From Acidobacteriota bacterium (GTDB taxonomy: Bacteria; Acidobacteriota; Thermoanaerobaculia; Gp7-AA8), in NCBI GenBank assembly GCA_034667465.1, contig JAXDJV010000013.1, positions 188,303-252,302 of the forward strand: a DNA stretch of 64,000 nucleotides. Reading direction: 5' to 3'. Position numbers and translations under genes: made by a program. The first letter of the stretch is position 1; each line of letters begins with the position of its first letter. The notes under the pieces are model-generated. The model saw nothing but the letters and a program-made list of their open reading frames with translations, ran no database searches and had not been told where the DNA came from. Shown piece after piece: positions 12,943-28,267 of the stretch.

Positions 12943-12978
12943 AGTCAACTTCGGGGGTCTGACCCCCGAAATTGACTT
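12943..12978. terminator. Bidirectional hairpin between convergent genes
   Basis: aagtcaacttcggggg-tctg-acccccgaaattgactt: a 16-bp stem between the DHS stop and the VWFA stop. Confidence 0.6.
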
Positions 12979-15008
12979 TACTGCGGCACGATCGCCGCCG
13001 TGCTCTTCATCGAGTCGGCGGCGTTTTTCTTTTTCACGACGACGTCGAGCGCCGACGCGCCGGCCGGAACGGAATCGAGCTGCATGACGAGCTTCGTCGC
13101 GCTGCCGTTCTTCACCTGCCCGAGGTTCTTCGCGCGCGGCGTCGCTTCCCACGTCAGTTCGTCGGGTGACGCGTTGTAGACGAAGACCGTGAACTTGCGC
13201 GGCTGTCCGTTCTTCACGCGCACCGCGGCGCTCGGGATGAACATCTCGCCGCCGATCTCGAACGGATAGCCGGCGTTGGTCTGATCGTGCGAGCCGCCTT
13301 TCACCATCACCCAGTTGCCGCCTTCTTCGATGAACAGCGGCGGCGTGACGGCGACCTCGTTCGCGCGCGGCACGGTCAGCTCGGAACGTGCGAAGCCGCG
13401 CGCTTCCGTCTCCGGTACGCGCACGAGTGATTTCACCGCGTACGTTCCTGGCGGCACGCTGAGCGTCCCGTAATACTTGATGCCGCTGGCGCGCAGCTTG
13501 TCGCCGACCTTCGTCAGATCGAGCGACATCTTCTGATAGAGGCGGTCGCGCACGACGCCGCTGTCGTCGAATGCGTAGATGAAGATCTCGGCGTTGAGCG
13601 TGTTTCCTTTCGCGTTCTTCGTTAGGTCCGTACCGTTGATCTCGAGGATGACCGGGACCTGCGCGTTCGCGCCGGTGGTCGGGAACGCCGCGGTCAGCGC
13701 GGCGACGCCGAGGCCGCTTTGCGGGATGTCGTTGAGGATGATCTCCGCGTTCGAAAGGGAGCGTTCCGCCGCGGTCTCGCCGCCGAGCTCGTAGTAACCG
13801 GCGCGATGCGACGCGCGCGAACCCGACGGCACATTGACGAGCTTCACTTTCAGATCGTGGAAGCGGCCCGGCTTCGCGGTCGGCGACTGGAAGCCGAGGA
13901 CGTAGACGACCTCCTGCTGGCGAAGCATGCGTGCGAAGTCGTCGCTGATGCTGTTCGAGTTGCGGAAGACTTCGCCGCCCGTCGGCTTCGAAACGAGGAA
14001 CAGCGCTTCGTTCGAATTCACGCGCGTATTGCCGCTGGTGTCGTTGCGCGCGCCGGTCTGCAGATCGCCGTTCACGCGCACGCCCTGAATGTCGAACGCG
14101 TTGAGCACGACGTCGGAGCCGCGAAAGATGCGCGCCATTTCCTCGATGATCGTGACGCTGCTCGAGCTGCCGTAACGCGCATCGGAATCGACGGTGTACG
14201 CCTGACCGGTCAGCACCGCTTCGTTTTCCTTCCGGACTTCTTCGCTCGATCCGGGACCTCGCCCCTGCACCAGTTTCGGATCGAACCCTTCCGACAGGAG
14301 GATGATCTGCTTGCGTCCCGAGACGGCACGCAGCGTTCGGGCGAGATTGCCGAGTGTCGTCAGCTGCTTCTCGATGCGGCCGCGATTGAATGCGTCGTTG
14401 CTCCGGCTGACGCCGCGCGAGATTTCCTGGACCTGCTCGGCGGCGGCGCCACGGCCGCCCTTCAGGTTCTGGTCCTTCGCGTCATAGGTCGTCGTTCCGG
14501 CGATCTGCAGCGGATCGGTCCCATGAAACGTTTGCGGATTGCTGATCGCGCTCGCGAGCAGATCGCGGTCGGTGGTGAACGCGGTCGTGAGCCGATAACC
14601 CTTCTCCGCGTCGATCGTCGCAATCGCGACGAGATCGCGCGGACGAACGCTCGTCTTCAGAAACGAACGCGCCGCGTCCTGCGCGCGCACCATCGACGCC
14701 GGCGACGAGTACGTCAGATCGAAGAGCAGCATGAAGTTGCGCCGCGCCGCGGGGTTCAGCGGCGAGATCGCTTTCACCGACTCTTCCGATGCGAAGTCGA
14801 TCTTGTCGAACGACGTCACGCTGATCGGCTTGCCGTCGTCGATCAGCTGGAAGTTCGCGGCCGTCAGTCCGCGCACCGGATTGCCGTCGCGATCGACGAC
14901 CGTCACCGGCACCTCGACGATCTGGACGTTCACCGTCTCTTTCACCTGCGCGAGAAGCGGCACACCAATGACGGCCAGCAGCAGCAAACGGCTCAGAATC
15001 GCTTTCAT
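12978..15008 (-). CDS. Secreted VWA domain protein of the Acidobacterial VWFA-related (TIGR03436-like) family, paralog 1
   Basis: Signal peptide. N-terminal 'VNVQIVEVPVTVVDRDGNPVRGLTAANFQLIDDGKP' motif. Central VWA fold. C-terminal beta-rich domain. Confidence 0.8.
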   Translation of the reverse strand: MKAILSRLLLLAVIGVPLLAQVKETVNVQIVEVPVTVVDRDGNPVRGLTAANFQLIDDGKPISVTSFDKIDFASEESVKAISPLNPAARRNFMLLFDLTYSSPASMVRAQDAARSFLKTSVRPRDLVAIATIDAEKGYRLTTAFTTDRDLLASAISNPQTFHGTDPLQIAGTTTYDAKDQNLKGGRGAAAEQVQEISRGVSRSNDAFNRGRIEKQLTTLGNLARTLRAVSGRKQIILLSEGFDPKLVQGRGPGSSEEVRKENEAVLTGQAYTVDSDARYGSSSSVTIIEEMARIFRGSDVVLNAFDIQGVRVNGDLQTGARNDTSGNTRVNSNEALFLVSKPTGGEVFRNSNSISDDFARMLRQQEVVYVLGFQSPTAKPGRFHDLKVKLVNVPSGSRASHRAGYYELGGETAAERSLSNAEIILNDIPQSGLGVAALTAAFPTTGANAQVPVILEINGTDLTKNAKGNTLNAEIFIYAFDDSGVVRDRLYQKMSLDLTKVGDKLRASGIKYYGTLSVPPGTYAVKSLVRVPETEARGFARSELTVPRANEVAVTPPLFIEEGGNWVMVKGGSHDQTNAGYPFEIGGEMFIPSAAVRVKNGQPRKFTVFVYNASPDELTWEATPRAKNLGQVKNGSATKLVMQLDSVPAGASALDVVVKKKNAADSMKSTAAIVPQ

Positions 15009-15028: not shown

Positions 15029-17098
15029 TTACTTGACGATCAGCGCCACGCTCGCCTTGCGCGCGTCGGCCGATCCTTTGCTGCGAACGGTGACATCGAA
15101 ACTGGAGCTGCCGCGTACAAGTCCCTGCGGCGCGAGGTCGAAGACGAGCTTGGTCAGCTCGGCGTCGCGCGCGCGCACTTTCGATACGACGGCCGGCGTC
15201 ACGACGGCGCCGCCCGCGGCAGTCTCGAACGTCATCTCTTCCGCGTTGGCGTTATAGACGAACAGCGCGTATTTGCGATGCACGCCGTTCGTCACACGCG
15301 CCGCGGAGCTCGGCATGAACGGCTCGCCGTTGAGCATGAACGGATAGGCGGCACCGCTCCGATCGTGCGACGCGCCGCGTACGAGCAACCACTCCGACGG
15401 TTGATCGAAAAAGAGCGGCGGCAGCACCGACACATCATCGGCATGCGGCACGACGACGTCGACGCGCGCGAAGCCTTTGCGATCGCTGTCGATCACGCGA
15501 ACGAGACTCTTCACCTGGTAGTGACCTTCCGGAAGGCTGAGCGTCGCGTAATACTTGATTCCGCTGGCGCGCAACTGCGCTCCGACCTTGCCGACGTCGA
15601 GCGTCAGCCGCTGATAGAGACGATCGCGCACGAGGCCGTCGTCATCGAACGCGTAGATGAAGACATCGGCAAGCGCCGTCTTCGCGTTCGCTCCTTCCAG
15701 CAGCGACGGACCGTCGATCTCGAGCACGACCGGCACCTGCGACTGCACGCCCGTCGTCGGAAACGCGGCCGCCAGCGCATCGACATGGACCTCCGTCTGC
15801 GCGATGTCGTTCAACACGATCTCCGCGTTCGTGAGCGATCGCTCCAGCGCGGTCTGCGTTCCGGCTTCGTAGTAACCGGCGCGATGAAAAACGCGCGTGC
15901 CGCGCGGCGCGTCGAGCAACCGCACCTTCAGCTCGTGAAACGTTCCCGGCTTTTCCGCCGCCGCACGAAACGCGAGGACGTAGACGACTTCCTGCGCGCG
16001 CAGCATGCGATGCAGATCGTCATCGAGATCGTTGGAGTTCTGAAAGACGGCGCCGCCGGTTGGGTTGGCGACGAGGAAGAGCGCTTCGTTGGAGTTGATC
16101 TGTGCGCCGTGCGAGAGGTCGTTGTTGACGCGAACCCCTTTGGTGTCGATGGCGTGCAGCACGACATCGGCGGCGCGGAACTCGTGCGCCATCCGCTGGA
16201 GCGCGGTCTGCGTGTCGGACGTGCCGAATCGCGCGTCGGGATCAGTACGCCACAGCTCGCCGGTGAGGATCTGCTCGAGCTCTTCCCGTTGTTCGGCAGT
16301 CGAACCGGCTTCACGTCCGCGCACGAGCCGCGGATCGAAGCCGTCGGAGAACATGATGATCTGCTTGCGACCCGGTACTGCGCGCAGCGTTTTCGCCAGC
16401 TCTGCGAGTGCGCCGAACTGACGAAGGATCCGCGTGCGCATGAACTGATCGTCGAGCCGCTGCTGCTGCTTCAGCATTTCCTGAAACATGATCGCGCCTT
16501 CGTCGACGCGACCGGACGGCATCTCGCCGGGACGCGACATCGCGGCCATATCAACGACCGGAGTCCCGGCGATCTGCAGCGGATCGTTCCCGCGGAACGA
16601 GCGCGGATCGGCGATCGCAGCATTCAGCAGATTGCGATCGGTCGTGAACGCCGTGAGCATTCGGAATCCGCGATCGGCATCGACGGTCGCGACGCCGATC
16701 AGGTCGCGACGTCCGGCGCCACGCACGAGGAAGTCGCGCGCGGCGTTCTGCGCTTTCGCGATCGACGTCGGCGAGGTGTACGAGAGATCGAAGAGAAGGA
16801 GGAAGTTGCGGCGCGCGACCGGATTCAAACGCGACAGCGATTTCACCGACTCGAACGATGCGAAGTCGATCGCGTCAAACGCCGTCACCGCCTGCCTGTG
16901 GCCGCCGTCGAGCAGCTCGAAGTTGGCCTCCGTCAGTCCGCGCACCGGATTGCCGTCGCGATCGACGACCGTGACCGGCACCTCGACCACGTGAACGTTG
17001 ACGCTCTCCTGCAGTTGCCCGCGCGCCGCGCCTGCCATGAGCAGCGCGACACACGCAATACGAGCGAGCGGCGGCATCAGGATCTCCTGACGCGACAT
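15029..17098 (-). CDS. Secreted VWA domain protein of the Acidobacterial VWFA-related (TIGR03436-like) family, paralog 2
   Basis: Colinear with the paralog at 12978..15008 ('VNVHVVEVPVTVVDRDGNPVRGLTEANFELLDGG...'). Confidence 0.8.
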   Translation of the reverse strand: MSRQEILMPPLARIACVALLMAGAARGQLQESVNVHVVEVPVTVVDRDGNPVRGLTEANFELLDGGHRQAVTAFDAIDFASFESVKSLSRLNPVARRNFLLLFDLSYTSPTSIAKAQNAARDFLVRGAGRRDLIGVATVDADRGFRMLTAFTTDRNLLNAAIADPRSFRGNDPLQIAGTPVVDMAAMSRPGEMPSGRVDEGAIMFQEMLKQQQRLDDQFMRTRILRQFGALAELAKTLRAVPGRKQIIMFSDGFDPRLVRGREAGSTAEQREELEQILTGELWRTDPDARFGTSDTQTALQRMAHEFRAADVVLHAIDTKGVRVNNDLSHGAQINSNEALFLVANPTGGAVFQNSNDLDDDLHRMLRAQEVVYVLAFRAAAEKPGTFHELKVRLLDAPRGTRVFHRAGYYEAGTQTALERSLTNAEIVLNDIAQTEVHVDALAAAFPTTGVQSQVPVVLEIDGPSLLEGANAKTALADVFIYAFDDDGLVRDRLYQRLTLDVGKVGAQLRASGIKYYATLSLPEGHYQVKSLVRVIDSDRKGFARVDVVVPHADDVSVLPPLFFDQPSEWLLVRGASHDRSGAAYPFMLNGEPFMPSSAARVTNGVHRKYALFVYNANAEEMTFETAAGGAVVTPAVVSKVRARDAELTKLVFDLAPQGLVRGSSSFDVTVRSKGSADARKASVALIVK

Positions 17099-17131
17099 CT
17101 TAGGAGAGTCGCGCCCGCCCGCGCGACTCCG

Positions 17132-17770
17132 TCACTGTTTCGTGATGGCGCCGGCGTCGCTGCGCAGCATTCCGTGCCGCAGGATTCGCGAGATCTCGCT
17201 CACCACCGCCTCGGTGTCTTTCCCGAAATGTTCTTTGACGCCGAAGATGATCTCGATCGAGAAATAGTTATAGAAGATCCGCGTCGCCAGCATGACCGCT
17301 GCGGCCGGCGACAACCCTTCCTGCAATTTCGCTTTCAGCTCGTCTTCCATGTGATGCGACTTCAGGAAGGATTCGAACCGGCTCGACATGTCCGAATAGA
17401 ACTTGCGAATGTGCGAACCGTCGAACTCGACGACGTCGACGTAAATCAGCGCGACGTGATCGCGATATTCAGCGACCGTTTCGCGCGCCGCATGTCCGAG
17501 CTCTTCGAGATTTTCGGGAAAGGTGCTGCCGGCCAGCGCGCGATTGAATGGAAAGTCCGGCGTCGACATCGCCTGGAAATACTGATCGAGCAGCTCGCGG
17601 AAAATCGTCTCTTTGTCAGGAAAGTGGTGATAGACGTTTCCTTTGGAAACTCCCGCCGCCTCGGCGATGTCACGGACGCTCGTCGCCCCATACCCGTGAT
17701 GGGAAAAGAGTTTCAGCGCCGCTTCCAGGATCTGGGCGCGGCTCCGTTCGGAGCGTTCTTCCTGGTTCAT
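17132..17770 (-). CDS. TetR/AcrR family transcriptional regulator
   Basis: Internal ATG 'MNQEERSERSRAQILEAALKLFSHHGYGATSVRDIAEAAGVSKGNVYHHF' gives the HTH_TetR N-terminus. Last gene of the operon. Confidence 0.8.
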   Translation of the reverse strand: MNQEERSERSRAQILEAALKLFSHHGYGATSVRDIAEAAGVSKGNVYHHFPDKETIFRELLDQYFQAMSTPDFPFNRALAGSTFPENLEELGHAARETVAEYRDHVALIYVDVVEFDGSHIRKFYSDMSSRFESFLKSHHMEDELKAKLQEGLSPAAAVMLATRIFYNYFSIEIIFGVKEHFGKDTEAVVSEISRILRHGMLRSDAGAITKQ

Positions 17771-17777
17771 TGAATCC

Positions 17778-19217
17778 TCAGTGTATCGCTTCGCGCAGCT
17801 TCGCTTTTTCGACCTTTCCGTAAGGCGTCCGCGGAAGTACGTCCATGAATACGTAACGCTTCGGCAACTTGTACTTCGCAATACGCGCCGCGAGGTACGT
17901 TTCGAGCTCGTGCTGCGCGGCGCGGCCTACGATGAACGCGACCGCGACCTCGCCCCAGACGTCGTCCGGCACCGGCACGATCGCGGCGTCGGCGACCAGC
18001 GGATGCGTGACCAGCTCCGCTTCGATCTCGGCCGGATAAACATTGACGCCGCCGCTGATGAACATCTCTTTGCGGCGGCCGGCGATGAAAAAGAATCCGT
18101 CGGCGTCGCGCCGCGCGAGATCGCCGGTATGGAACCAGCCGTCGTCGCCGTACGCCGCGCGCGTCGCTTCTTCGTTGTTCCAGTAGCCGCTGCTGACATG
18201 CGGTCCGCGAATCGACATTTCGCCGATCTCGTCTTCCGCGACTTCGTTGCCATCGCTGTCGATCAGCCGTACTTCGGTGAAGAGCAGCGGCCGCCCGATC
18301 GAGCCCGGCTTCTGTGCCGCATCCTCGACCGTCATCGTGAAGCAGTTCACGCCGACCTCGGTCATTCCATAGCCCTGCTTCATCGGCACGCCGCGCGCGA
18401 GATACGCCTGTTGGATGTACGCGGGCAGCGGCGCGCCACCGCTGATGAACCAGCGGACGTGGCGGAGATCGGCGGTCGCAAATCCGGGATCGTCCATCAG
18501 CAGCTTCCAGATTGTCGGGACGCCGAGGACGACCGTGCAGCGCTCGCGCTCGATCGTCGGCCAGACGACGCGCGCGTCGAAGTTTTTGTGCAGCACGATC
18601 GTGCCGCCGACGCTGAAGATCGGGATGAGAAACGCCGCGACGCCACCCGCGTGATAGAGCGGCGTGAAAATCGGAGTGACGTCGTCTTCGCGCAGTCCCC
18701 AGTTCACGGCGGTGTTGTAGCCGTTCCACCAGAGCTGGCGCTTCGGGATCATCACGCCTTTCGGTTTGCCGGTCGTGCCGGAGGTGTACAGGAGACAGTA
18801 GATTGATTCGGCGTCGGCGCGGAGTGGCTCGCATGCTCCTTCACCGCTGCGCAGCGCGCACATCGCGACCGGCAAATCGAGCTTCGCGAACTCTTCACCG
18901 ACGAACAACACCTTCATCGCGCAGTCTTCGATGATGCCGCGCAACTCGTGCTCGGTCGCGCGCGTCGACAGCGGCACGACGATCGCTCCGCATTTCGCCG
19001 CGGCGAAGAAGAACGCGAGGAACTCGACGCAGTTGTACGCGAGGATTCCGTAGCGATCGCCGGCTTCAACTCCTGCTTCGCGCAGTGTGACGGCCGCCGC
19101 CTGTGCGCGCAGATCGAGATCGCGATACGTGAAACGCGCGCCGCTCTCGATCTCGACGAGAGCGAGCTTGTCCGGCGTAATGCGTGCGCGCTCGGCTAAC
19201 AGGTCCCCGTCAAACAT
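17778..19217 (-). CDS. AMP-dependent synthetase/ligase (acyl-CoA synthetase-like)
   Basis: 'LLYTSGTTGKPKGVMI' AMP-binding P-loop. 'YGMTE'. 'GWFHTGDLARRDADGFFFIAGRRKE'. C-terminal 'PKRYVFMDVLPRTPYGKVEK'. Confidence 0.85.
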   Translation of the reverse strand: MFDGDLLAERARITPDKLALVEIESGARFTYRDLDLRAQAAAVTLREAGVEAGDRYGILAYNCVEFLAFFFAAAKCGAIVVPLSTRATEHELRGIIEDCAMKVLFVGEEFAKLDLPVAMCALRSGEGACEPLRADAESIYCLLYTSGTTGKPKGVMIPKRQLWWNGYNTAVNWGLREDDVTPIFTPLYHAGGVAAFLIPIFSVGGTIVLHKNFDARVVWPTIERERCTVVLGVPTIWKLLMDDPGFATADLRHVRWFISGGAPLPAYIQQAYLARGVPMKQGYGMTEVGVNCFTMTVEDAAQKPGSIGRPLLFTEVRLIDSDGNEVAEDEIGEMSIRGPHVSSGYWNNEEATRAAYGDDGWFHTGDLARRDADGFFFIAGRRKEMFISGGVNVYPAEIEAELVTHPLVADAAIVPVPDDVWGEVAVAFIVGRAAQHELETYLAARIAKYKLPKRYVFMDVLPRTPYGKVEKAKLREAIH

Positions 19218-20023
19218 GCGATGAAGCGCTCCGGCTGCTGGCGATGCGGAATGTGCGCGGCTCCGTCGATGACATGCAGCTCCGCTCCTTCAATCTTCTT
19301 CTGCAGCGCTTCCGCGTAATCGAGCGGCAGCACGCCATCGTCTTTGCCCCAGATCAATTTCACCGGCACGCGCAGCTCGCCGAAACGTCCGTCCATCATG
19401 TGCGTCACGATGTTCGTCTGCATGACGCGCAGCATCGGCGAACCGTTTGCGCGCGCGAGGAATGCGTCGATGACGAACTCCGGCGTCGCGTCGGCGGGAC
19501 CGTTCACTGCTCGCATCATCACCGCCGCCTGCTCGCGCGTGTTCGCGACCAGCGGCACCGTCATCGGCCACGACATGCCGCCGGTATCTTCGAGCGCGAG
19601 TTGCGTGACGCGTTCCGGATGCCGGAGCGCGTACAACATGCTCATCCAGCCGCCCATCGAGTTGCCGACGAGCGTGACTTTCCCACCCGTCTCTCGATCG
19701 ATGATCGCGGAGAGATCGTCGACGACGCGCATCAGATCGATCGGGCCGTCGAGAGGCGCGCTTTCGCCATGTCCCGCAAGATCCGGAATGACCAGCCGAT
19801 ACTTCGCGGCCAGCGCCGGCACGACGGCGGCCCATGTTCCGGCCTGATCGTTCACGCCGTGAATGAGCACGATCGTTTCGTCGCCCTTTCCGCCGCTGAA
19901 CCAGACGCGGCCATCTTCTTCGTGGCGCGTTAGTCCCGACATCGCGAGCGCGGCGCGCGTGGCGGCGATGAATGTTGCGATCGGATCGACAGCAGTCGAA
20001 TCAGGCACGCTCGAATCAGGCAA
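19196..20023 (-). CDS. Alpha/beta hydrolase fold protein
   Basis: 'VLIHGVNDQAGTW' followed by the 'GNSMGGW' nucleophile elbow. Overlaps the downstream ligase by 22 nt. Confidence 0.8.
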   Translation of the reverse strand: MPDSSVPDSTAVDPIATFIAATRAALAMSGLTRHEEDGRVWFSGGKGDETIVLIHGVNDQAGTWAAVVPALAAKYRLVIPDLAGHGESAPLDGPIDLMRVVDDLSAIIDRETGGKVTLVGNSMGGWMSMLYALRHPERVTQLALEDTGGMSWPMTVPLVANTREQAAVMMRAVNGPADATPEFVIDAFLARANGSPMLRVMQTNIVTHMMDGRFGELRVPVKLIWGKDDGVLPLDYAEALQKKIEGAELHVIDGAAHIPHRQQPERFIACLTGTC

Positions 20024-21044
20024 GGAGTCTCTCCTCGTTTTTCGGCAGGCGAAACGCGACCGCGGCCTGGTTGTAGCCGACGCCGGAGCCGATCAGCACG
20101 ACGAGCTCGCCGCCGCGGATCTTCTTCTGCCGCAGCGCGTCATGAAACGCCATCGGGATGCAGGCCGAACCGGTGTAGCCCCATTTCTCCATCACGGTGT
20201 GCGTCTTTTCCATCGGAAGCCCGAGGTCGTTCATGACCAGCTCGATGGTCGGCTTGCGCACCTGGGTGAAGATCAGAAAATCGATTTCGCCGACGGCGAA
20301 TCCACCGTTCTTCGCGACGGCGCGGACGAGCTTCGGCCAGCCGTCGTTGTTGATCTCGGGCGGATAGCGCTCGATCATCTTCACGCGCGTCCGTCCGTTC
20401 GCGAATGAGTCGGCGGTGATCGGCTCGACGGTGCCGCCGGCCGGAATCAGCCAGTTGCGATGCAGAGTTCCGTCGGCCGCGAACGCCGCGGCGATGAAGC
20501 CCGGCTCGCTGCTTCGCTCGAGGATCGCCGCGCCGGCGCCGTCGCCGTAAAAGAACGTCATCGGATCGTCGGGATCGGCGAGCTTGTGCATCAGGTAGAC
20601 GCCGACGACGAGCACCGTCCTCAGCTGAGGATTCGTCGCCATCAAACCGGCCGCGTTCGCGAGCGCGGTCGGAAACGACGCGCAGGCGCAGGCGACATCG
20701 AACGTGCCGGCGTTCTTCGCGCCGAGCTTCGACTGCAACACGACCGACGTCGCCGGCGTGATGTAGTCGGGCGAATCGGTTCCGAGAATGATGAGGTCGA
20801 GCTCTTCCGCTTTGCGGCCCGCGTTCGCGAGCGCCTGTTCTGCCGCACGCTTCGCGAGATCGGACGCCGCCCAGTCCGACGGCGCGCGCCAGCGGCTGCG
20901 AATCCCGCTCGCCGCTTCCATCTTGTCGACGAACGTTGGCGCACTCTCGCTGAAACGCGCGCGCAACTCATCGTTCGTCACTTCCGTCTCGGGAAGGTAC
21001 GACGACGTCGCGACGATGCTCGCGTATGCGGGCTCAGGTGCCAA
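20016..21044 (-). CDS. 3-oxoacyl-ACP synthase III (KAS III/FabH-like). The start is uncertain; the listed ORF extends to a TTG at 21146.
   Basis: 'ASIVATSSYLPE' N-terminus. Active-site Cys in 'VACACASF'. 'HQAN'/'GNTSA'-type C-terminus ('EKWGYTGSACIP'). A TTG at 21044 preceded by GGGGGA fits FabH N-terminal length. Confidence 0.7.
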   Translation of the reverse strand: MAPEPAYASIVATSSYLPETEVTNDELRARFSESAPTFVDKMEAASGIRSRWRAPSDWAASDLAKRAAEQALANAGRKAEELDLIILGTDSPDYITPATSVVLQSKLGAKNAGTFDVACACASFPTALANAAGLMATNPQLRTVLVVGVYLMHKLADPDDPMTFFYGDGAGAAILERSSEPGFIAAAFAADGTLHRNWLIPAGGTVEPITADSFANGRTRVKMIERYPPEINNDGWPKLVRAVAKNGGFAVGEIDFLIFTQVRKPTIELVMNDLGLPMEKTHTVMEKWGYTGSACIPMAFHDALRQKKIRGGELVVLIGSGVGYNQAAVAFRLPKNEERLLA

Positions 21045-21762
21045 GGACGAGTCCCCCGTCAACTGACAGCACCGTTCCGTGGATGAACTTCGCGGCGTCG
21101 GACGCCAGCCAGACATACGCGTTGGCGATGTCGTCCGGCTCACCAAGCATCCCGAGCGGCGCTTTCTGCGCCATCGTGTCGAGCACTTTCTGCGGCATCG
21201 CTTTGATCATGTCGGTGGCGATGAAACCGGGAGCGACCGCGTTCACGCGAATCCCGAACTTCCCGAGCTCGCGCGCCCACGTCTGCGTGAAACTGATCAC
21301 GCCTGCTTTCGTCGCCGCGTAATTCGTCTGACCGAAATTTCCGTAGAGACCGACGATCGACGATGCGTTCAGCACGACACCGCTTCGCTGTTTGATCATC
21401 TGCGGCACGACCGCGCGCGTGCAGACGAAGACCCCTTTGAGGTTGACGTTGACGACCGCATCGAACGTCGCATCATCCATCGTCGAGACGATCTCGCCGT
21501 CCTTCACTTTCACCAGCTGCGCGTCGCGCACGATGCCGGCGTTGTTGACGAGGACGTCGATCCGTCCGTGTTGCGCCAGCACTTCCGCAACGGCCGCATC
21601 AACCGACTCACGACTGGTGACGTCGATGCGCGGTTCGCTGGTGATGTCCCATACGACGACCTTCGCTCCTTCATCAGCGAAGCGTTCGGCGGTGGCGCGG
21701 CCGATTCCTGCCGCGCCACCGGTGACGATGACGATTTTGTCGCGGAGCCCGCTCGGGATCAC
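21034..21762 (-). CDS. SDR family oxidoreductase (3-oxoacyl-ACP reductase FabG-like)
   Basis: GTG start overlapping the TonB-dependent receptor stop. 'IVTGGAAGIGRA' Rossmann motif. 'NNAG'. Catalytic 'YAATKAGV'. The 747-aa listed ORF is an artefactual upstream extension. Confidence 0.8.
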   Translation of the reverse strand: MIPSGLRDKIVIVTGGAAGIGRATAERFADEGAKVVVWDITSEPRIDVTSRESVDAAVAEVLAQHGRIDVLVNNAGIVRDAQLVKVKDGEIVSTMDDATFDAVVNVNLKGVFVCTRAVVPQMIKQRSGVVLNASSIVGLYGNFGQTNYAATKAGVISFTQTWARELGKFGIRVNAVAPGFIATDMIKAMPQKVLDTMAQKAPLGMLGEPDDIANAYVWLASDAAKFIHGTVLSVDGGLVLGT

Positions 21763-24512
21763 TAGAACACCCAGCGAAGACCGAGCTGGAACTCGCGAGC
21801 CGGGAGCGTTGCGCGTGCAGCGCCGTAGCCGGGATTCGGAACGTAAGCCGCCGCCGGATTCGCGATGGTCGGACCGCTCAGGAACTGCGCGCCGTTGATC
21901 GACTGCACGTCGTAGTTGACGACGTTGGTGAGATTGAAGCATTCGGCGATCGCTTCGACCTGACCCCAGCCGATCGCGAATCCCTTCGTCAGACGAAGCG
22001 AGAGCTGGCGAAACGGCGGACCGTTCTCGGTGTTGCGGCCAACGCCGAGCGGACGATCGGAGTTCTTGCCGTCGCCGTTGTAGTCGTAGCCGAGGCGATG
22101 CGTCCACGGCTGGCCCGAACCGTACTCGTAAATCGGCGCGACGAGAATGCCGTACGGCGCGTGGAAGATGCCGCTGACGACGACGCGGTAATGCTCGTCG
22201 CCGCGCGCGCGGCCGTATTCGGAATTGATGCTGGCCGGATCGCTCGGGTAGCCGGTCGGGAAGTCGGGGCTGAAGTCGTCGCTGATGTTGTCCTTGTCGG
22301 CGACGGTGAGCGACGCGGTGATCAGATCGTTCTTCCGGATCGAGCCGTTGAGGCTGACGACGATCGCGCGATAACGCGAGCGGCCGTCGTTCGTGTACAT
22401 GTTGATCTGGTCGTACGAGGTGTTCGGGCGAACGTGCGTGGCGTTGCCGCTCCAGTTCACATCGCGAATGACGATCTCGTGCTCGCCCTTCACGTAGATT
22501 CCTTCGGTGTCGAGATAGAGACGCGAGTCGCCGAGCTTCATCGTGTAGCCGAGTGAGACCTGCGTCGATTCCGGCGACTCGAGATCGGGCGCGAGCAGCG
22601 CGATGGCCGGCTTCGAAACGATGCCGGTATTGCGCGGGTTGTTCGGATCGAGCGCCAGCGACGGGAAGCCGAGGAGCGCGCCGTTGATGCGCGTGTAGGT
22701 GACGCGTCCGGTCTCGCCATTCTGCTGCAGTTCGGTGAGTGCCGGCACGAGGAGGAAGCGGCCGGTGAAGCGGCCCGCGCCGCCGCGAACGACGCTGGTG
22801 CCGTCGCCGCGCAGGTCGTAGTTGAAGGATGCGCGCGGCTGATAGTTGTTCGTGTCGCGCTTGCGCGGATTCGGAATCAGCGCGTGATGGAAGCCGGCGT
22901 TGTTGCCGTTCGTATCGAGGTCGTAGCGAAGACCGAGGTTGACGAGGAGCTTCGTCGACGGGCGCCACGAATCTTCGATGAAGGCGCCGTAAAGATTCGT
23001 GCTCGTGTCGACGTCCGACGATCCGACGCCGTACGCGTACGCAAGCGGCAGCGCCTTCGTATCGGTCAGATAGATGAAGAGCCCTTCCTGATACGTGTCG
23101 ATGCGCAGGCGCTCCGAAACGTGCTGCAGCGAAACGCCGCCTTTGAGGTCGTGCGAGCCGTTGCCGGCGGCGAGATGGTGATGCAGCGTGTCGCGCAGTT
23201 CCCAGTTCGAACCGTCGCCGAGCAGATCGCCGAGGATGTTCGAGCCGGTCATCAATGTGTTGCCGGACGAGTACCACTCCGCGACGCCGTTCGAATTCGT
23301 CGGCTCAAAAAAACGGCGCGTGCCGTATTGCGCACGTGCCTCGTTCGAAGTCGAGCCGGAGATGAACGTGTTGTGCTCGAAGGTCGTGTTCCAGTTCTTG
23401 CGCTCGAGCGTCTGACCGTACGACGCATCTGCGACGCCGCCGACGCGGAAGTTGTCTTCGGTGTAATTCTCGTAGACCGCTTTGACGCCGGCCGTCATCG
23501 TCGCGCTGAGGTTCGTGTCGAGGCTGCCGAAGACGAGCGTCTGATCGAACGGATGCGAAATGTCTGCGGCCCGCGATGCGAACGCGCCGCCGGGACGATA
23601 GAGGACGATGTTCTTCTCGTTGATCTGCTCGACGGAGCCGAAGTAGAACAACTTGTCGCGCATGGCCGGACCGCCGATGGTGAAGCCGAGCTGGCGGCGC
23701 GAGTAGTCATCGTTCTTCTTCAGGTCGAGCGCCCCCTGCGAACGGAGTGCGCTGTCGCGGAAGAAACCGAAGACGCTGCCGCTGATGTCGTTCGTTCCCG
23801 ACTTGGTGACGATCGAGAGCGCGCCGCCGGCGGAGCCGCCGATCTCCGTGTCGAAGCGATTCGTGATGACGCGGAACTCGCGCACCGCGTCCTGACTGAA
23901 GCGCGCGCGGGCCAGACCGTTGACCTGGTCGGTGAGATCGACGCCGTTCACAAAGATCGTCGTCTGCGACGCGTTGCCGCCGGCGCCGACGACCGGTCCG
24001 CCGTTGATGAAGCGGAAGCCGCCGCGCTCGCGCTGGACGCCGGGGGCGATGAATGCGAGGCGCTGGAAGTCGCGATCGGCGACCGGCAGCGCGGCGATCT
24101 GCTCGGGAAGAATGTTCGTCGAGCTGTCGGTCTTCATGACGTCGACGATCGGCGACTCGGCGCTGACCGTGATCGTCTCGCTCGCCTGCGCGTGCATCGC
24201 GACGCTCAGCTTCGCTTCCTGTCCGACGCGGATCGTCAGGTTCTGTTCGCGCACCGGCGCGAATCCTTCGAGCATGAACTGCACGCGATAGTTCCCCGGC
24301 GTCAGCGCGAGGAAGCGAGCGCTGCCGGCTGAGTCGGTGACCGCCGTGGTTGTGAAGCCGGTCTCCGGCCGCGCGACCGTGACGGTCACGCCCGGAAGCG
24401 GCGAGCGCGCCTGATCGAGCGCGATCGCTTCGATGGAGCCTTTGTCGATCTGAGCAAAAGCGTTAATCGAGAAGAGAAGGAGGAACGCGAGGAGCACCGC
24501 CGTTTTTCGCAT
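21762..24512 (-). CDS. TonB-dependent receptor with an N-terminal carboxypeptidase-regulatory-like domain
   Basis: Internal start 'MRKTAVLLAFLLLFSINAFAQ' (signal peptide). 'TVTVARPETGFTTTAVTDSAGSARF' CarbopepD_reg. Plug and barrel. C-terminal 'FQLGLRWVF'. Upstream AAGGA Shine-Dalgarno. Confidence 0.8.
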   Translation of the reverse strand: MRKTAVLLAFLLLFSINAFAQIDKGSIEAIALDQARSPLPGVTVTVARPETGFTTTAVTDSAGSARFLALTPGNYRVQFMLEGFAPVREQNLTIRVGQEAKLSVAMHAQASETITVSAESPIVDVMKTDSSTNILPEQIAALPVADRDFQRLAFIAPGVQRERGGFRFINGGPVVGAGGNASQTTIFVNGVDLTDQVNGLARARFSQDAVREFRVITNRFDTEIGGSAGGALSIVTKSGTNDISGSVFGFFRDSALRSQGALDLKKNDDYSRRQLGFTIGGPAMRDKLFYFGSVEQINEKNIVLYRPGGAFASRAADISHPFDQTLVFGSLDTNLSATMTAGVKAVYENYTEDNFRVGGVADASYGQTLERKNWNTTFEHNTFISGSTSNEARAQYGTRRFFEPTNSNGVAEWYSSGNTLMTGSNILGDLLGDGSNWELRDTLHHHLAAGNGSHDLKGGVSLQHVSERLRIDTYQEGLFIYLTDTKALPLAYAYGVGSSDVDTSTNLYGAFIEDSWRPSTKLLVNLGLRYDLDTNGNNAGFHHALIPNPRKRDTNNYQPRASFNYDLRGDGTSVVRGGAGRFTGRFLLVPALTELQQNGETGRVTYTRINGALLGFPSLALDPNNPRNTGIVSKPAIALLAPDLESPESTQVSLGYTMKLGDSRLYLDTEGIYVKGEHEIVIRDVNWSGNATHVRPNTSYDQINMYTNDGRSRYRAIVVSLNGSIRKNDLITASLTVADKDNISDDFSPDFPTGYPSDPASINSEYGRARGDEHYRVVVSGIFHAPYGILVAPIYEYGSGQPWTHRLGYDYNGDGKNSDRPLGVGRNTENGPPFRQLSLRLTKGFAIGWGQVEAIAECFNLTNVVNYDVQSINGAQFLSGPTIANPAAAYVPNPGYGAARATLPAREFQLGLRWVF

Positions 24513-24520
24513 CGTTAGTC

Positions 24521-24552
24521 CTTTTAAAGCAGTCCTGAGTCCTGAGTCCTGA
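24521..24552. repeat. Tandem heptamer (agtcctg x3, then agtgctc) in the TonB-dependent receptor leader
   Basis: gagtcctgagtcctgagtcctgagtgct, 10-40 nt upstream of the receptor ATG (minus strand). Related to the GAGTGCT heptads of the REP-like family. Confidence 0.6.
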
Positions 24553-24664
24553 GTGCTCGACGCGGGCATGACGCGCAGTTTCTTACTCGTCATTTGCCGT
24601 CCGGGCGGTCGGTTTGTTGTGATGGCGCGAATGTTAGGTCTGCCGGGCGCGTCTGTCAAGCCGG

Positions 24665-24760
24665 GAAAGGTGCTGAGTGCGAAGTGCTGAGTGCTGAGTC
24701 GGAAAATTGGCGGTCGCACCTGACTCAGCACTCTGCACTCAGCACTCAGCACCTCACAGG
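24665..24760. repeat. REP-like palindromic element, copy B
   Basis: ggtgctgagtgcgaagtgctgagtgctgagtc ... gactcagcactctgcactcagcactcagcacc, in the divergent region between the TonB-dependent receptor and pspA. Confidence 0.7.
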
Positions 24761-24776
24761 CTCGGGCGGCGGGACT

Positions 24777-25541
24777 ATGATTTACGGCATGTTCAATCGC
24801 ATCGGGAACCTCTTCCGCGGTTTCTTCGGCCTCTTCGTCTCCGGCATGGAGCGTCGCAATCCGGAGGCGCTGCTCGAAGTGGAGAAGGAAAATCTTCGCA
24901 AGCAGATCGCGAGCTACAACCAGGGGCTCGCCGCGCATGCCGGACTTTGCGAGCGGCTGATGACGCAGGTCCGCAAGCTCGAAACGGACGAGCGCGACGC
25001 GCGCGCGAAGACGGCCGCGAATCTCCGCGCGGGCAATCGTGAGATTGCCGCGCAGCACGCGCTGCGGCTGCAGAGCATCACCGAAAATCTCGCCGAGACG
25101 CGGCTGCAGCTCGAACATGGCGAGACGACCTATCGCGAACTGATCAAGGCGCGCGACGTCGCCGTGAAAGCGGCGCAGGTAAAGCTCGCTTCCCTCAAAC
25201 ATTCGCTCGACGATCTGAAGATCAAGCGCGCCACCGCCGAGCTTACCGAGATGGCGTCCGGAATGATCACGACCATCGGCGGCTCGGGCGACACGCTCGA
25301 TCGTCTGCACACGATGGTCGAAGAAGAACGCGAGAAAGCAGCAGGACGCGCACGCGTCGCGCGCGACACGCTGTCGACGTCCGAACTGGCGCTGAAAGAA
25401 GAAGAGCAGCGCGCGCTGGAAGCGCAGGCACTCGATGAGTTCGTCGCGCGCGAAGGCTTCCAGATCGAGGGGACGGGAACCGCGACGACCGAAGGCGCTC
25501 TGCCGCACGCCGTCGACGTGAAACTGATCCCGCCGAAGTGA
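24777..25541 (+). CDS. pspA: PspA/IM30 family protein
   Basis: 'MIYGMFNRIGNLFRGFFGLFVSGMERRNPEALLEVEKENLRKQIASYNQGLAAHAG' matches the PspA N-terminal amphipathic helix and coiled coil. The listed ORF start (24594) reads through the repeat. Confidence 0.8.
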   Translation: MIYGMFNRIGNLFRGFFGLFVSGMERRNPEALLEVEKENLRKQIASYNQGLAAHAGLCERLMTQVRKLETDERDARAKTAANLRAGNREIAAQHALRLQSITENLAETRLQLEHGETTYRELIKARDVAVKAAQVKLASLKHSLDDLKIKRATAELTEMASGMITTIGGSGDTLDRLHTMVEEEREKAAGRARVARDTLSTSELALKEEEQRALEAQALDEFVAREGFQIEGTGTATTEGALPHAVDVKLIPPK

Positions 25542-26799: not shown

Positions 26800-26935
26800 A
26801 GGCATGAGGTATGAGTAATGAGGCATGAGTAAAAGCCTCTGACTCACCACTCATGCCTCATCACTCATGCCTCATTACTCATGCCTCATTACTCATGCCT
26901 CATTACTCATGCCTCATTACTCATACCTCATGCCT
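26800..26935. repeat. Hairpin plus a tandem 14-mer array (atgcctcat[t/c]actc, about 5 copies) immediately upstream of, and running into, the MBL-rhodanese start
   Basis: Direct reading: 14-nt units at 26853, 26867, 26881, 26895 and 26909. The left arm (26803..26838) is their reverse complement. Confidence 0.75.
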
Positions 26936-28267
26936 CTCTTTAAGCAGTTCTACCTCCCCTGCCTCGCCCACGCCTCCTACGTAATCGCCTCCAACGGCGA
27001 GGCGGCGATCGTTGATCCGCGGCGTGATGTCGATGAGTACATCGAATTCGCGCGCGAGCATGGGCTGACGATTCGTTACGTCATTGAGACGCATCTGCAT
27101 GCCGATTTCGTGAGCGGGCATCGGGAGCTGGCGGAGCGGACCGGGGCGGAGATCGTGTTTGGGGCGCGGGCGGCGGCGGAGTTGCCGCATCGCGCGGTGC
27201 GTGATGGCGATGTGCTGCGCGTTGGCGCGCTGGAGTTGCGCGCCATGGAAACGCCGGGACATACGCCGGAGTCGATCTCGTGGCTGATCATTGAAGACGG
27301 CGTGCCGCGGCGCGTGCTGACCGGCGACACGCTGTTCATCGGCGACGTCGGCCGTCCCGATCTCGCCGGCTCGCGCGGATTCACGTCGGAGCAGATGGCG
27401 TCGATGCTTTACGACTCGCTGCACGAGAAGCTGCTCGCGCTTCCCGACGATGTCGAAGTCTGGCCGGCGCATGGCGCAGGGTCGGCATGCGGACGGAACA
27501 TCTCGAAAGAAACATCGTCGACGATCGGCGTGCAGCGCCGGACCAACCACGCGCTCGCGCCGATGTCGCGCGAGGAGTTCGTCAACATGATGACTACCGG
27601 CATCTCGGCGCCGCCGGCGTACTTTCCGTACGACGCGGAGCTGAATCGCCGCGGCGCGCGTCCGCTCGCGGAACTGACCGCGAAGCCGCTCGCTGCTGAT
27701 GAGATCCGCGCAATGCGCGCAACGATTCTCGACGTCCGCGACGCCGCGTCATTCGGCGCAGGTCATGTCGCCAGCGCCGTCAACATCGGTCTCGATGGTC
27801 AGTTCGCATCGTGGTGCGGCACGCTGCTTCGCTCCGACGCGACGCTCGTCGTCTTCGCCGCGTCCACGCAGAAAGCGGCCGAAGCGGTGATGCGTCTCGC
27901 GCGCATCGGCTACGAAAACGTCGCCGGTTACACGACGTCGCTCGATGGCTTCGAAGTCGCGCCGCTCGGACAGATGAGCGTCGCCGAACTGCACGCCGCC
28001 CCGCTGCGCGTGGTCGACGTCCGCGGTCCCGGCGAGTACAGCGCGGGTCACGTTCCCGACGCGATCAACATTCCGCTGCCCGAGCTTTCCGCGCGGCTCG
28101 GCGAGATCGATCGCGATGGCGCACTCGCCGTGATCTGCGCCGGCGGCTATCGCTCATCGGCGGCCGCGAGTCTGCTCGCGCAGGCCGGTTTCGCGCATGT
28201 GATCAACGTCGCCGGCGGTACGTCGGCGTGGGTGCGCGAAGGCTTCGCGACCGACGTCTCAGCCTGA
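26930..28267 (+). CDS. MBL-fold metallo-hydrolase (persulfide dioxygenase/ETHE1-like) fused to two rhodanese domains
   Basis: 'HLHADFVSGH' metal-binding motif. 'TPGHTPESI'. 'GDTLFIGDVGRPD'. Two rhodanese folds, the second with the active-site 'ICAGGYRS'. N-terminus 'MPLFKQFYLP' fits ETHE1-like starts. Confidence 0.8.
   Translation: MPLFKQFYLPCLAHASYVIASNGEAAIVDPRRDVDEYIEFAREHGLTIRYVIETHLHADFVSGHRELAERTGAEIVFGARAAAELPHRAVRDGDVLRVGALELRAMETPGHTPESISWLIIEDGVPRRVLTGDTLFIGDVGRPDLAGSRGFTSEQMASMLYDSLHEKLLALPDDVEVWPAHGAGSACGRNISKETSSTIGVQRRTNHALAPMSREEFVNMMTTGISAPPAYFPYDAELNRRGARPLAELTAKPLAADEIRAMRATILDVRDAASFGAGHVASAVNIGLDGQFASWCGTLLRSDATLVVFAASTQKAAEAVMRLARIGYENVAGYTTSLDGFEVAPLGQMSVAELHAAPLRVVDVRGPGEYSAGHVPDAINIPLPELSARLGEIDRDGALAVICAGGYRSSAAASLLAQAGFAHVINVAGGTSAWVREGFATDVSA

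Follow-up and report, generated by a model that had tools for sequence, protein, structure and literature searches.

An acidobacterial operon linking a TonB-dependent receptor to an atypical KAS III-like protein: a likely uptake-and-catabolism system

A six-gene operon on the minus strand of an Acidobacteriota contig (17132-24512 of the 64,000-nucleotide stretch analysed here, hereafter the window) encodes a TonB-dependent receptor (TBDR), a short-chain dehydrogenase/reductase (SDR), a protein resembling β-ketoacyl-acyl carrier protein (ACP) synthase III (KAS III), an α/β-hydrolase, an AMP-forming ligase and a TetR-family regulator. We conclude that the locus is most likely a regulated uptake-and-catabolism operon of a known kind, with a core enzyme family that appears to be uncharacterised and widely mis-annotated. 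We consider the uptake-and-catabolism logic likely because the KAS III-like protein and its relatives have no His/Asn dyad, because genes for ACP, malonyl transferase and dedicated export are missing from the loci, because the SDR has what reads as an NAD(H)-type signature, and because ABC importers and CoA-transferases accompany the family elsewhere. A first-pass annotation of the window had proposed that a condensing enzyme makes or remodels an acylated signal, siderophore or lipid that is also imported. The same four observations speak against the synthesis part of that claim; its sub-option, the remodelling of an imported lipid, comes nearest to the reading that the evidence favours.

The genes adjoin or overlap at every junction for which the first-pass annotation had claimed this, as the open reading frame (ORF) listing and inspection of the start codons bear out. 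The receptor gene (24512-21762; 916 aa, ATG start) shares one nucleotide of its stop codon (TAGTG) with the GTG start of the SDR gene (21762-21034; 242 aa). The SDR gene overlaps by 11 nt with the KAS III-like gene (21044-20016; 342 aa, TTG start), which in turn overlaps by 8 nt with the hydrolase gene (20023-19196; 275 aa, TTG start with a GGAGAG Shine-Dalgarno sequence); an alternative hydrolase start, a GTG at 20008, would leave a 7-nt gap after the KAS gene instead. The hydrolase and ligase genes (ligase 19217-17778; 479 aa, ATG start) have 22 nt in common, and the TetR gene (17770-17132; 212 aa, ATG start), the last of the operon, follows after a 7-nt gap that contains GAGGA. Between the six genes there is no intergenic room for an internal promoter or terminator, and a single promoter-like site lies upstream, in agreement with the one tightly coupled transcription unit that had been proposed. 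Eleven terminator-like matches inside the operon are weak and intragenic, a number close to the 7.6 ± 2.7 expected of shuffled sequences; we reject internal promoters or terminators that would split the operon, none being credible. The family assignments of all six proteins exceed the Pfam gathering cut-offs, and none of the six attains the curated cut-off of any NCBIfam model. The 342-aa KAS product is present in identical form in the public NCBI annotation of an Acidobacteriota metagenome-assembled genome (MAG; P0001).

Active site and family of the KAS III-like protein

The KAS III-like protein, which we call KAS-CTY, matches the Pfam domains ACP_syn_III and ACP_syn_III_C with 62.7 and 74.4 bits, and its best PDB match is FabH 4dfe (161 bits, ~30% identity over the full length). 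Its AlphaFold model (pLDDT 91.5) aligns with 4dfe at a Foldseek TM score of 0.86-0.91. The Foldseek search of this model returned only canonical FabH, BioZ and PqsD, and the fold does not reveal the chemistry. The active-site residues are more informative. Alignment with the FabH proteins of Escherichia coli (1hn9) and Burkholderia xenovorans (4dfe) places Cys121 at the nucleophile Cys112, and shows that His244, Asn247 and Asn274 of FabH are replaced by Thr260, Arg263 and Tyr290. These substitutions are common to 120 of 120 close homologues, and Cys121 is invariant in all family members examined. Published mutagenesis of FabH has established that His244 and Asn274 are required for malonyl decarboxylation and condensation and not for formation of the acyl-enzyme. 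Because both residues are replaced and the cysteine is kept, KAS-CTY would be expected to form an acyl-Cys intermediate but not to elongate it with malonyl units. From these residues, it is highly probable that KAS-CTY is not a decarboxylating, ACP-dependent condensing enzyme, and elongation with malonyl-ACP appears very unlikely.

To place the window protein in its clade, we searched 1.84 billion representatives clustered at 50% identity. Nearly all full-length matches down to about E-49 or 35% identity have the combination C-T-(N/R)-Y, together with the motifs FTQ(V/I)N and GYTGSAC; the exceptions are a few frameshifted or aberrant sequences. Below ~35% identity the matches turn into canonical C-H-N-N FabH, with a few further CTY members interspersed. 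Besides Cys121, the family invariants are Asp90 (in TDSPD), Cys295 and Ser320-Gly321, and the GDGAGA and glycine-rich oxyanion-loop motifs are kept. The position equivalent to FabH Arg249, which we take to be an ACP-docking residue, is variable (P, T, S, V, W, R, E, K, Y, G or Q in alignment A1). KAS-CTY is thus like FabH in fold, in both ACP_syn_III domains and in its nucleophile, and differs from it in Thr260/Tyr290, in having Arg or Asn in place of Asn247, in its own invariants Asp90 and Cys295, in having archaeal members and in lacking fatty-acid synthesis neighbours in the loci examined. The NCBIfam FabH models stay below their cut-offs (195.7 versus 249 and 171.2 versus 292.1 bits), and a PDB profile search found no solved structure in the CTY clade. 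The source names shown for the family are only "3-oxoacyl-ACP synthase III", "ketoacyl-ACP synthase III" or "hypothetical protein"; for the CTY clade, "synthase III" is very probably wrong. Full-text literature searches turned up no account of the cluster, nor of a FabH clade lacking His/Asn.

The catalytic residues of other thiolase-fold enzymes are likewise incomplete in KAS-CTY. The Cys-His-Cys set of thiolases is missing, with no histidine at either loop and no conserved cysteine on the Cβ4-Cβ5 loop (GSGVG), and the NCBIfam thiolase matches are weak and partial (~19-25 bits); KAS-CTY may thus act in the manner of a thiolase without belonging to that family. Of the Glu-Cys-His set of HMG-CoA synthase (HMGCS), the cysteine is present and the histidine absent (Thr260); the NCBIfam HMGCS model scores 50 bits against a cut-off of 244 and covers the N-terminal half only. 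Judging by motifs rather than by an alignment, the invariant Asp90 in TD(S/T)PD may hold the place of the HMGCS general-base glutamate. KAS III-fold acyltransferases that do without decarboxylative condensation and transfer acyl groups by way of the active-site nucleophile, such as CerJ, DpsC, ChlB6 and PtmR, occur in polyketide clusters and keep the histidine (Cys/Ser-His-Asp). By description, KAS-CTY differs from them in having Thr/Tyr instead and in lying in clusters for import and CoA metabolism.

Some loci hold two copies of the gene. Tandem KAS-CTY genes with 67% and 71% identity to the window protein occur in one locus (L020:6780-8981), and two others (L053 and L061) have a second paralogue with 27-30% identity. 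By analogy with PqsBC or LstAB, it is a possibility that such paired genes encode heterodimers.

The receptor–enzyme link across loci

The receptor of the operon has a signal peptide, a CarboxypepD_reg domain, a β-barrel and a C-terminal phenylalanine (...LRWVF), that is, the 22-strand β-barrel domain and the C-terminal aromatic residue by which TonB-dependent transporters are recognized. Its Pfam matches are OMP_b-brl_4 (PF25183, 185.6 bits), CarboxypepD_reg (59.3 bits) and TonB_dep_Rec_b-barrel (PF00593, 45.9 bits, cut-off 27). By eye, the motifs ETITV at residue 112 and KSGTN at residue 237 look like a TonB box and the end of a plug; a Pfam search at E ≤ 0.01 gave no Plug domain, and the receptor has no sequence match in the PDB.

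We scanned GTDB species genomes with a family-specific motif, which at least 598 of them carry, and compared the best 80 loci with the help of tblastn and a clustering of their ORFs. The counts refer to those 56 acidobacterial loci whose sequence extends 5 kb or more in both directions, and a component was scored as present if it lay no farther than 6.5 kb from the KAS gene. A TBDR and a ligase are each present in 53 of the 56, an SDR and an α/β-hydrolase each in 52, and a TetR gene in 43. The loci span Thermoanaerobaculia, Holophagae, Vicinamibacteria, Terriglobia and Bryobacterales, and three long contigs with 77-79%-identical KAS genes carry the same cluster. Orthologues of the window receptor are 51-76% identical across these classes. 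A second TBDR lineage, without detectable similarity to the first, is used in the same slot; in L001, one of these three contigs, the receptor is of the Plug type (Pfam Plug present), and its PDB matches are to known transporters in the plug region only, giving no clue to the substrate. The receptor–enzyme association survives rearrangement, because gene order varies (for example TetR-TBDR-SDR-ligase-hydrolase-KAS, or a ligase-hydrolase pair divergent from TBDR-KAS-SDR) while the TBDR stays beside the enzymes. The link is not due to chance. The first-pass annotation was thus right to couple the receptor to the enzymes, and the neighbourhood comparison by which it was to be checked shows a gene set conserved across acidobacterial classes.

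What the loci leave out is as consistent as what they contain. None of the 56 encodes an ACP, a malonyl transferase, a dedicated exporter, a nonribosomal peptide synthetase (NRPS) or an NRPS-independent siderophore (NIS) synthetase, and a major facilitator superfamily (MFS) transporter, which could work in either direction, lies inside the cluster in three near-clade loci. KAS-CTY never adjoins fatty-acid synthesis genes in the loci examined, and no fab genes occur in the 56. Genes for an acyl-CoA dehydrogenase or an enoyl-CoA hydratase are absent from the loci examined, which suggests that the substrate already bears a 3-hydroxy (or 3-oxo) group. Genes for VWA, GGDEF, EPSP synthase and M20 peptidase proteins neighbour the cluster in a few loci and give no consistent signal.

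In 31 of the 56 loci (L017-L071, for example L018:11459-14342), the ligase gene is followed by one for a 402-aa thiolase of the SCPx/archaeal type (F6), usually with one or two extra cytoplasmic α/β-hydrolases. The NCBIfam matches of F6 include the thiolase of the archaeal thiolase/HMG-CoA synthase/DUF35 complex. F6 is absent from the window.

Beyond Acidobacteriota, cluster look-ups place members of the clade in the archaea Thermofilum and Infirmifilum and in Caldisericia, Anaerolineales and Spirochaetia; to our knowledge, archaea have no ACP-dependent fatty-acid synthesis. The contexts of these and other relatives repeatedly combine KAS-CTY with importers and CoA-activating enzymes. In Thermofilum adornatum, the genes encode an AMP-ligase, two α/β-hydrolases, a Liv-type ABC importer, KAS-CTY and a binding protein, with an SDR nearby. 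Caldisericia has two hydrolases, KAS-CTY, an SDR, a binding-protein ABC importer, a double TetR and a CoA-transferase, and the SDR adjoining KAS-CTY is 47% identical to that of the window. A Xanthobacteraceae MAG is reduced to an ABC importer, KAS-CTY and a CoA-transferase. In Holophagaceae, a binding protein, a permease, an ATPase and a CoA-transferase replace the TBDR and the ligase. Binding-protein-dependent ABC systems are importers. Paucimonas lemoignei, a classic polyhydroxybutyrate (PHB) degrader, and related Oxalobacteraceae have an SDR, 3-oxoacid CoA-transferase subunits A and B and three hydrolases; in the close relative L079, the SDR scores as a 3-hydroxybutyrate dehydrogenase above the NCBIfam cut-off. 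A canonical thiolase gene is missing from the loci of Thermofilum, Caldisericia, Xanthobacteraceae and Paucimonas alike, so that the thiolase step after CoA activation and oxidation of the 3-hydroxy group is left unfilled there. Finally, in Alkalilimnicola ehrlichii (L085, 170-4334), KAS-CTY stands directly after the genes for the E2 and E3 components of a 2-oxoacid dehydrogenase, which suggests that it uses acetyl-CoA or an acyl-CoA from that complex.

Partner enzymes and predicted regulation

The SDR is a classical one, with the motifs TGGAAGIG at residue 14, NNAG at 73, NASS at 132 and YAATK at 148 (Tyr148-x3-Lys152). Its GGAAGIG motif has an alanine where FabG has Arg15, which binds the 2'-phosphate, and VVVWD puts Asp39 after β2; read in the light of the SDR literature, this is an NAD(H)-type signature. 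The FabG model TIGR01830 gives 260.2 bits, below its cut-off of 297.75. The best PDB matches are 4nbw, 4nbv, 4nbu and 4nbt, which we take to be NADH-dependent FabG homologues, and then 2et6, the (3R)-hydroxyacyl-CoA dehydrogenase of MFE-2. SDRs of the FabG, PhaB and MFE-2 types are (R)-specific.

The hydrolase belongs to the Pfam families Abhydrolase_1/6 and has a serine elbow, GNSMG, at residue 120 and a histidine at 257. Its NCBIfam and PDB matches, among them C-C hydrolases, esterases, PHB depolymerase and PlaF, are weak and generic. At the N-terminus, the orthologues of distant loci carry a transmembrane helix as a membrane anchor, like PlaF. The gene is absent in L001, L022 and L031. The ligase is a member of the ANL family (Pfam 295.4 bits for AMP-binding, and 67.1 bits), and the motifs YTSGTTGKPKG at residue 144, GYGMTE, TGD and a C-terminal PRTPYGK show that the adenylation core and the catalytic lysine are present. 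Among PDB entries it comes closest to 8wev/8weu (feruloyl / fatty-acyl-CoA synthetase) and FadD13. A CoA-transferase stands in for it in several related loci, which indicates that the job of the ligase is CoA activation, because only then could a CoA-transferase replace it.

Upstream of the receptor gene lies a sigma-70-type promoter-like site (24659-24631, minus strand), TTGACA-17-TAACAT, with 10 of 12 consensus matches. In the aligned 260 nt upstream of the receptor genes, a TTGACA...TAnnnT pair can be seen by eye at the same place in orthologous loci. The palindrome ACCGACCGCCCGGACGG (24597-24613, minus strand) starts 17 nt downstream of the -10 hexamer and is a candidate TetR operator. Matches to ACCGNCCGNNCGGNCGG in the window define one site only, read on its two strands. 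The exact 14-mer AACCGACCGGTCGG occurs once per locus in nine near relatives, always at the orthologous position, and in more distant classes ACATACCGAGCGTTCGGTAT-type palindromes occupy the operator place; the relatives' consensus is ACAAACCGACCGGTCGG. Palindromes of the ACATACCGAGCGTTCGGTAT type are also seen upstream of TetR in clusters that begin with this gene and, in the divergent arrangements, in the intergenic region that the TBDR shares with the ligase-hydrolase pair. We infer that the palindrome serves TetR as its operator, which would place receptor and enzymes under common regulation. TetR control of the operon, as claimed by the first-pass annotation, is plausible because this promoter-operator architecture is conserved upstream of the TBDR or TetR gene.

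The regulator itself matches TetR_N (PF00440) with 76.9 bits and is 72-81% identical in near relatives; in more distant loci its gene lies upstream of the TBDR gene. Its best matches are weak, to the ScbR family (65.8 bits, cut-off 150) and PDB 6srn, and the FadR of Thermus thermophilus (3ang/3anp) is among its weak PDB matches. No informative NCBIfam or PDB match was found for the C-terminal domain.

Directly 3' of the TetR stop codon is a GC-rich hairpin (17105-17130, minus strand; ΔG -24.5 kcal/mol, z = -3.2 versus shuffles) without a U-tract, possibly the end of the operon. The next gene begins at 17098, just past the hairpin, and some transcription may read through. This gene (15029-17098) and its neighbour (12978-15008), both on the minus strand, encode paralogous proteins of ~680 aa without a Pfam match, at least the former with a signal-peptide-like N-terminus. 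The family (F7) trails the cluster in near relatives only, often in two to three tandem copies, and is probably outside the operon. On the other side is a divergent PspA-like gene; both flanks are unrelated to the operon. Together with a cNMP-binding/DUF1003 gene, the PspA-like gene recurs upstream of the cluster in near relatives (L001, L002 and L003; window 24594-25541), which is probably plain synteny of close relatives and not a functional link. Between the PspA-like gene and the receptor gene, just upstream of the -35 hexamer, lies a 33-nt inverted repeat with GTGCTGA/TCAGCAC heptads (24668-24754; 91% complementary, 21-nt spacer), and three tandem GTCCTGA units stand in the 5' untranslated region (24532-24557). 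The repeat arrangement is also present in the 94%-identical relative L004 and absent from the more distant loci compared; the inverted repeat may act as an insulator or terminator, or be a repeat element. Farther away, 26867-28267 on the plus strand encodes a 466-aa fusion of a metallo-β-lactamase fold with a rhodanese that resembles persulfide dioxygenase-rhodanese fusions and is unrelated to the operon.

Proposed role and alternatives

On balance, we favour the view that the locus is a substrate-inducible, TetR-repressed operon for the uptake and CoA-dependent breakdown of an ester-bound or free 3-hydroxy acid. In the absence of inducer, a TetR dimer would sit on the palindrome downstream of the single promoter and keep the whole operon silent, the regulator's own gene included. 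The repressor would be freed from the operator by an acyl or hydroxyacyl ligand or by the corresponding CoA ester. The receptor would then bring the nutrient across the outer membrane, the α/β-hydrolase would cut the ester bond, and the ligase would convert the released acid into a CoA thioester and so keep it in the cytoplasm. The NAD+-type SDR would oxidise the 3-hydroxyacyl-CoA to 3-oxoacyl-CoA, and KAS-CTY would finish the pathway by means of its conserved cysteine, most likely by thiolase-like C-C cleavage, or else by a related acyl transfer. Taken by itself, the proposal that KAS-CTY acts as a thiolase is tentative and falls short of probable. The substrate may be a 3-hydroxyalkanoate, a doubtful guess by which we mean ester-bound (R)-3-hydroxyalkanoates in the form of polyhydroxyalkanoate (PHA) oligomers or 3-hydroxyacyl lipids; it is made because the SDR has (R)-type relatives, because BdhA/ScoAB genes form the context in Paucimonas and its relatives, and because neither a hydratase nor an acyl-CoA dehydrogenase is encoded. 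It is also conceivable, but not likely, that KAS-CTY represents a new ACP-independent class of the thiolase superfamily, at the core of an ancient uptake-catabolism module of Bacteria and Archaea. In Acidobacteriota, dedicated TBDRs would feed this module and would be the first to be assigned to hydroxy acids derived from polyhydroxyalkanoates or lipids. Thr/Tyr and the invariant Asp would then replace the His/Asn dyad, for non-decarboxylative C-C cleavage or ester thiolysis of 3-oxoacyl- or 3-hydroxyacyl-CoA.

Known routes for short keto and hydroxy acids provide a template for this scheme. E. coli atoDAEB, the BdhA-ScoAB-thiolase route of 3-hydroxybutyrate and PHB, and the PcaD-PcaIJ-PcaF route of β-ketoadipate are such catabolic systems, and the operon resembles them in combining an importer, an ester or lactone hydrolase in some cases, CoA activation (by a ligase or a transferase), 3-hydroxy oxidation in some cases, and a thiolase-fold enzyme. 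Some KAS-CTY genes even lie directly beside BdhA and ScoA/ScoB, others beside an importer and a CoA-transferase. In contrast to these routes, the thiolase slot here holds a KAS III-fold protein without thiolase catalytic residues, the Acidobacteriota would oxidise at the level of the CoA ester with a FabG/PhaB-like SDR and take up the substrate through a TBDR, and no enzyme of the operon reaches the curated cut-offs of those named families. Lipid and fatty-acid degradation clusters regulated by TetR/FadR, such as those of T. thermophilus FadR and of Sulfolobus acidocaldarius FadR with its esterases and acyl-CoA synthetases, likewise pair a TetR-family repressor and a palindromic operator (putative in our case) with esterases, an acyl-CoA ligase and thiolase-fold enzymes. 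The operon differs from them in lacking an acyl-CoA dehydrogenase and an enoyl-CoA hydratase, and so a full β-oxidation cycle, and in adding a dedicated outer-membrane receptor and an atypical KAS III.

Several observations weigh against the scheme. KAS-CTY has no thiolase Cys-His-Cys, and thiolysis would need a novel Thr/Tyr/Asp mechanism; moreover, the bona fide thiolase of 31 acidobacterial loci makes a thiolase role for KAS-CTY partly redundant there. The hydrolase, ligase and SDR fall short of every curated NCBIfam cut-off, and the PHA-related matches are weak (52 bits to 8ynv; 67 bits where the cut-off is 300). An inner-membrane transporter is missing from the window operon, whose operator sequence departs from the relatives' consensus. 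In four loci, M20 peptidases hint at amide-linked substrates, and the substrates might be amide-linked acyl compounds instead. The E2/E3 context of Alkalilimnicola gives no catabolic signal and does not follow the import-module pattern, and in Myxococcota the KAS homologue stands alone among uninformative neighbours (kinases, CheA and FHA proteins), equally without such a signal.

The catabolic logic could hold with a different role for the core enzyme. As a Cys-dependent acyltransferase, KAS-CTY would, for example, carry out CoA thiolysis of hydroxyacyl-oligomer esters and so yield acyl-CoA directly, or transfer acyl groups between CoA and another acceptor, and C-C cleavage would fall to housekeeping or cluster-encoded thiolases. 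FabH mutants show that transacylation needs no more than a lone cysteine and a kept backbone oxyanion hole (Gly321 here, Gly306 in FabH), and both the separate thiolase in 31 loci and the pairing of KAS-CTY with α/β-hydrolases in Acidobacteriota, β-proteobacteria, Caldisericia and Thermofilum agree with this. We nevertheless consider it rather unlikely: the minimal Xanthobacteraceae locus has neither hydrolase nor SDR and is a better fit to direct action on 3-oxoacyl-CoA, and no KAS III-like acyltransferase without the histidine is generally known. A biosynthetic operon, in which an acyl group primed by the ligase is condensed by KAS III, reduced by the SDR and set free by the hydrolase as a product that is exported and re-imported under TetR control, would account for the strong co-conservation of the cluster, for the weak best matches of TetR to hormone-receptor-type regulators (the ScbR family and 6srn) and for a receptor among enzymes, since receptor genes often adjoin siderophore biosynthesis genes. 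It is made improbable by the missing decarboxylation dyad, by the 56 loci without ACP, malonyl transferase, dedicated exporter, NRPS or NIS genes (an MFS transporter being present in three), by the NAD(H) signature of the SDR, by the orthologous modules with binding-protein ABC importers and CoA-transferases, and by the many loci that add a thiolase and extra hydrolases.

Salvage of fatty acids would assign the same proteins to type II synthesis, as has reportedly been proposed for Pseudomonas PA3286: the receptor would import, the ligase activate, KAS III condense with malonyl-ACP and the SDR reduce. The KAS sequence and fold are indeed closest to FabH, the SDR is FabG-like though below the TIGR01830 cut-off, and the ligase resembles fatty-acyl-CoA synthetases. 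Yet His244 and Asn274 are replaced across the KAS-CTY family, the Arg249 position is variable, and the family occurs in Thermofilum; on these grounds we reject a canonical FabH, and with the SDR signature and no role left for hydrolases, thiolase and CoA-transferases, salvage is very unlikely. An operon like OleABCD, whose KAS III-like protein, SDR, ANL adenylating enzyme and α/β-hydrolase come from the same four superfamilies, would join two acyl-CoAs head to head, reduce the product, form a β-lactone and convert it to an olefin, or end at the β-lactone. All four operon proteins belong to other subfamilies with other catalytic residues, however. OleA structures score 63 bits against 161 for FabH with the single sequence and 125 against 269 with the profile, in partial alignments; Thr96, not the OleA base Glu, stands just before the conserved Pro; the SDR is a 242-aa classical one without a 3β-HSD Pfam match; the hydrolase nucleophile is the Ser of GNSMG and not the Asp of the haloalkane-dehalogenase-like OleB; the ligase is closest to CoA ligases, and related loci have CoA-transferases in its stead; and some loci do without the hydrolase. 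With four of its defining features contradicted, the OleABCD or β-lactone explanation is rejected and retains next to no probability. The receptor, lastly, might be a chance neighbour of a functional unit of enzymes and TetR, as TBDRs are numerous in Acidobacteriota; in L010 the operator lies directly upstream of the SDR gene, at a contig start, and the Holophagaceae loci have no TBDR. The presence in 53 of 56 loci of a TBDR that is either co-directional or transcribed divergently from a shared operator region, the conservation of its orthologues across classes, the second lineage in the same slot, the 1-nt overlap with the SDR gene and the fact that it is the only TBDR in the window make this extremely improbable, and we reject chance adjacency.

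With the breakdown of imported hydroxy acids as the preferred reading, the "synthase III" label has practical consequences: automated models would miscount KAS-CTY genes as fatty-acid or polyketide biosynthesis. The conserved promoter-operator pair offers a ready test system for finding the inducer. If the reading is true, it would add a new reaction type to the KAS III fold and offer a first approach to the function of one of the numerous orphan TBDRs in Acidobacteriota. It would also point to widespread, so far unrecognised scavenging of hydroxy-acid esters, such as fragments of storage polyesters and bacterial lipids, by Acidobacteriota of soils and sediments.

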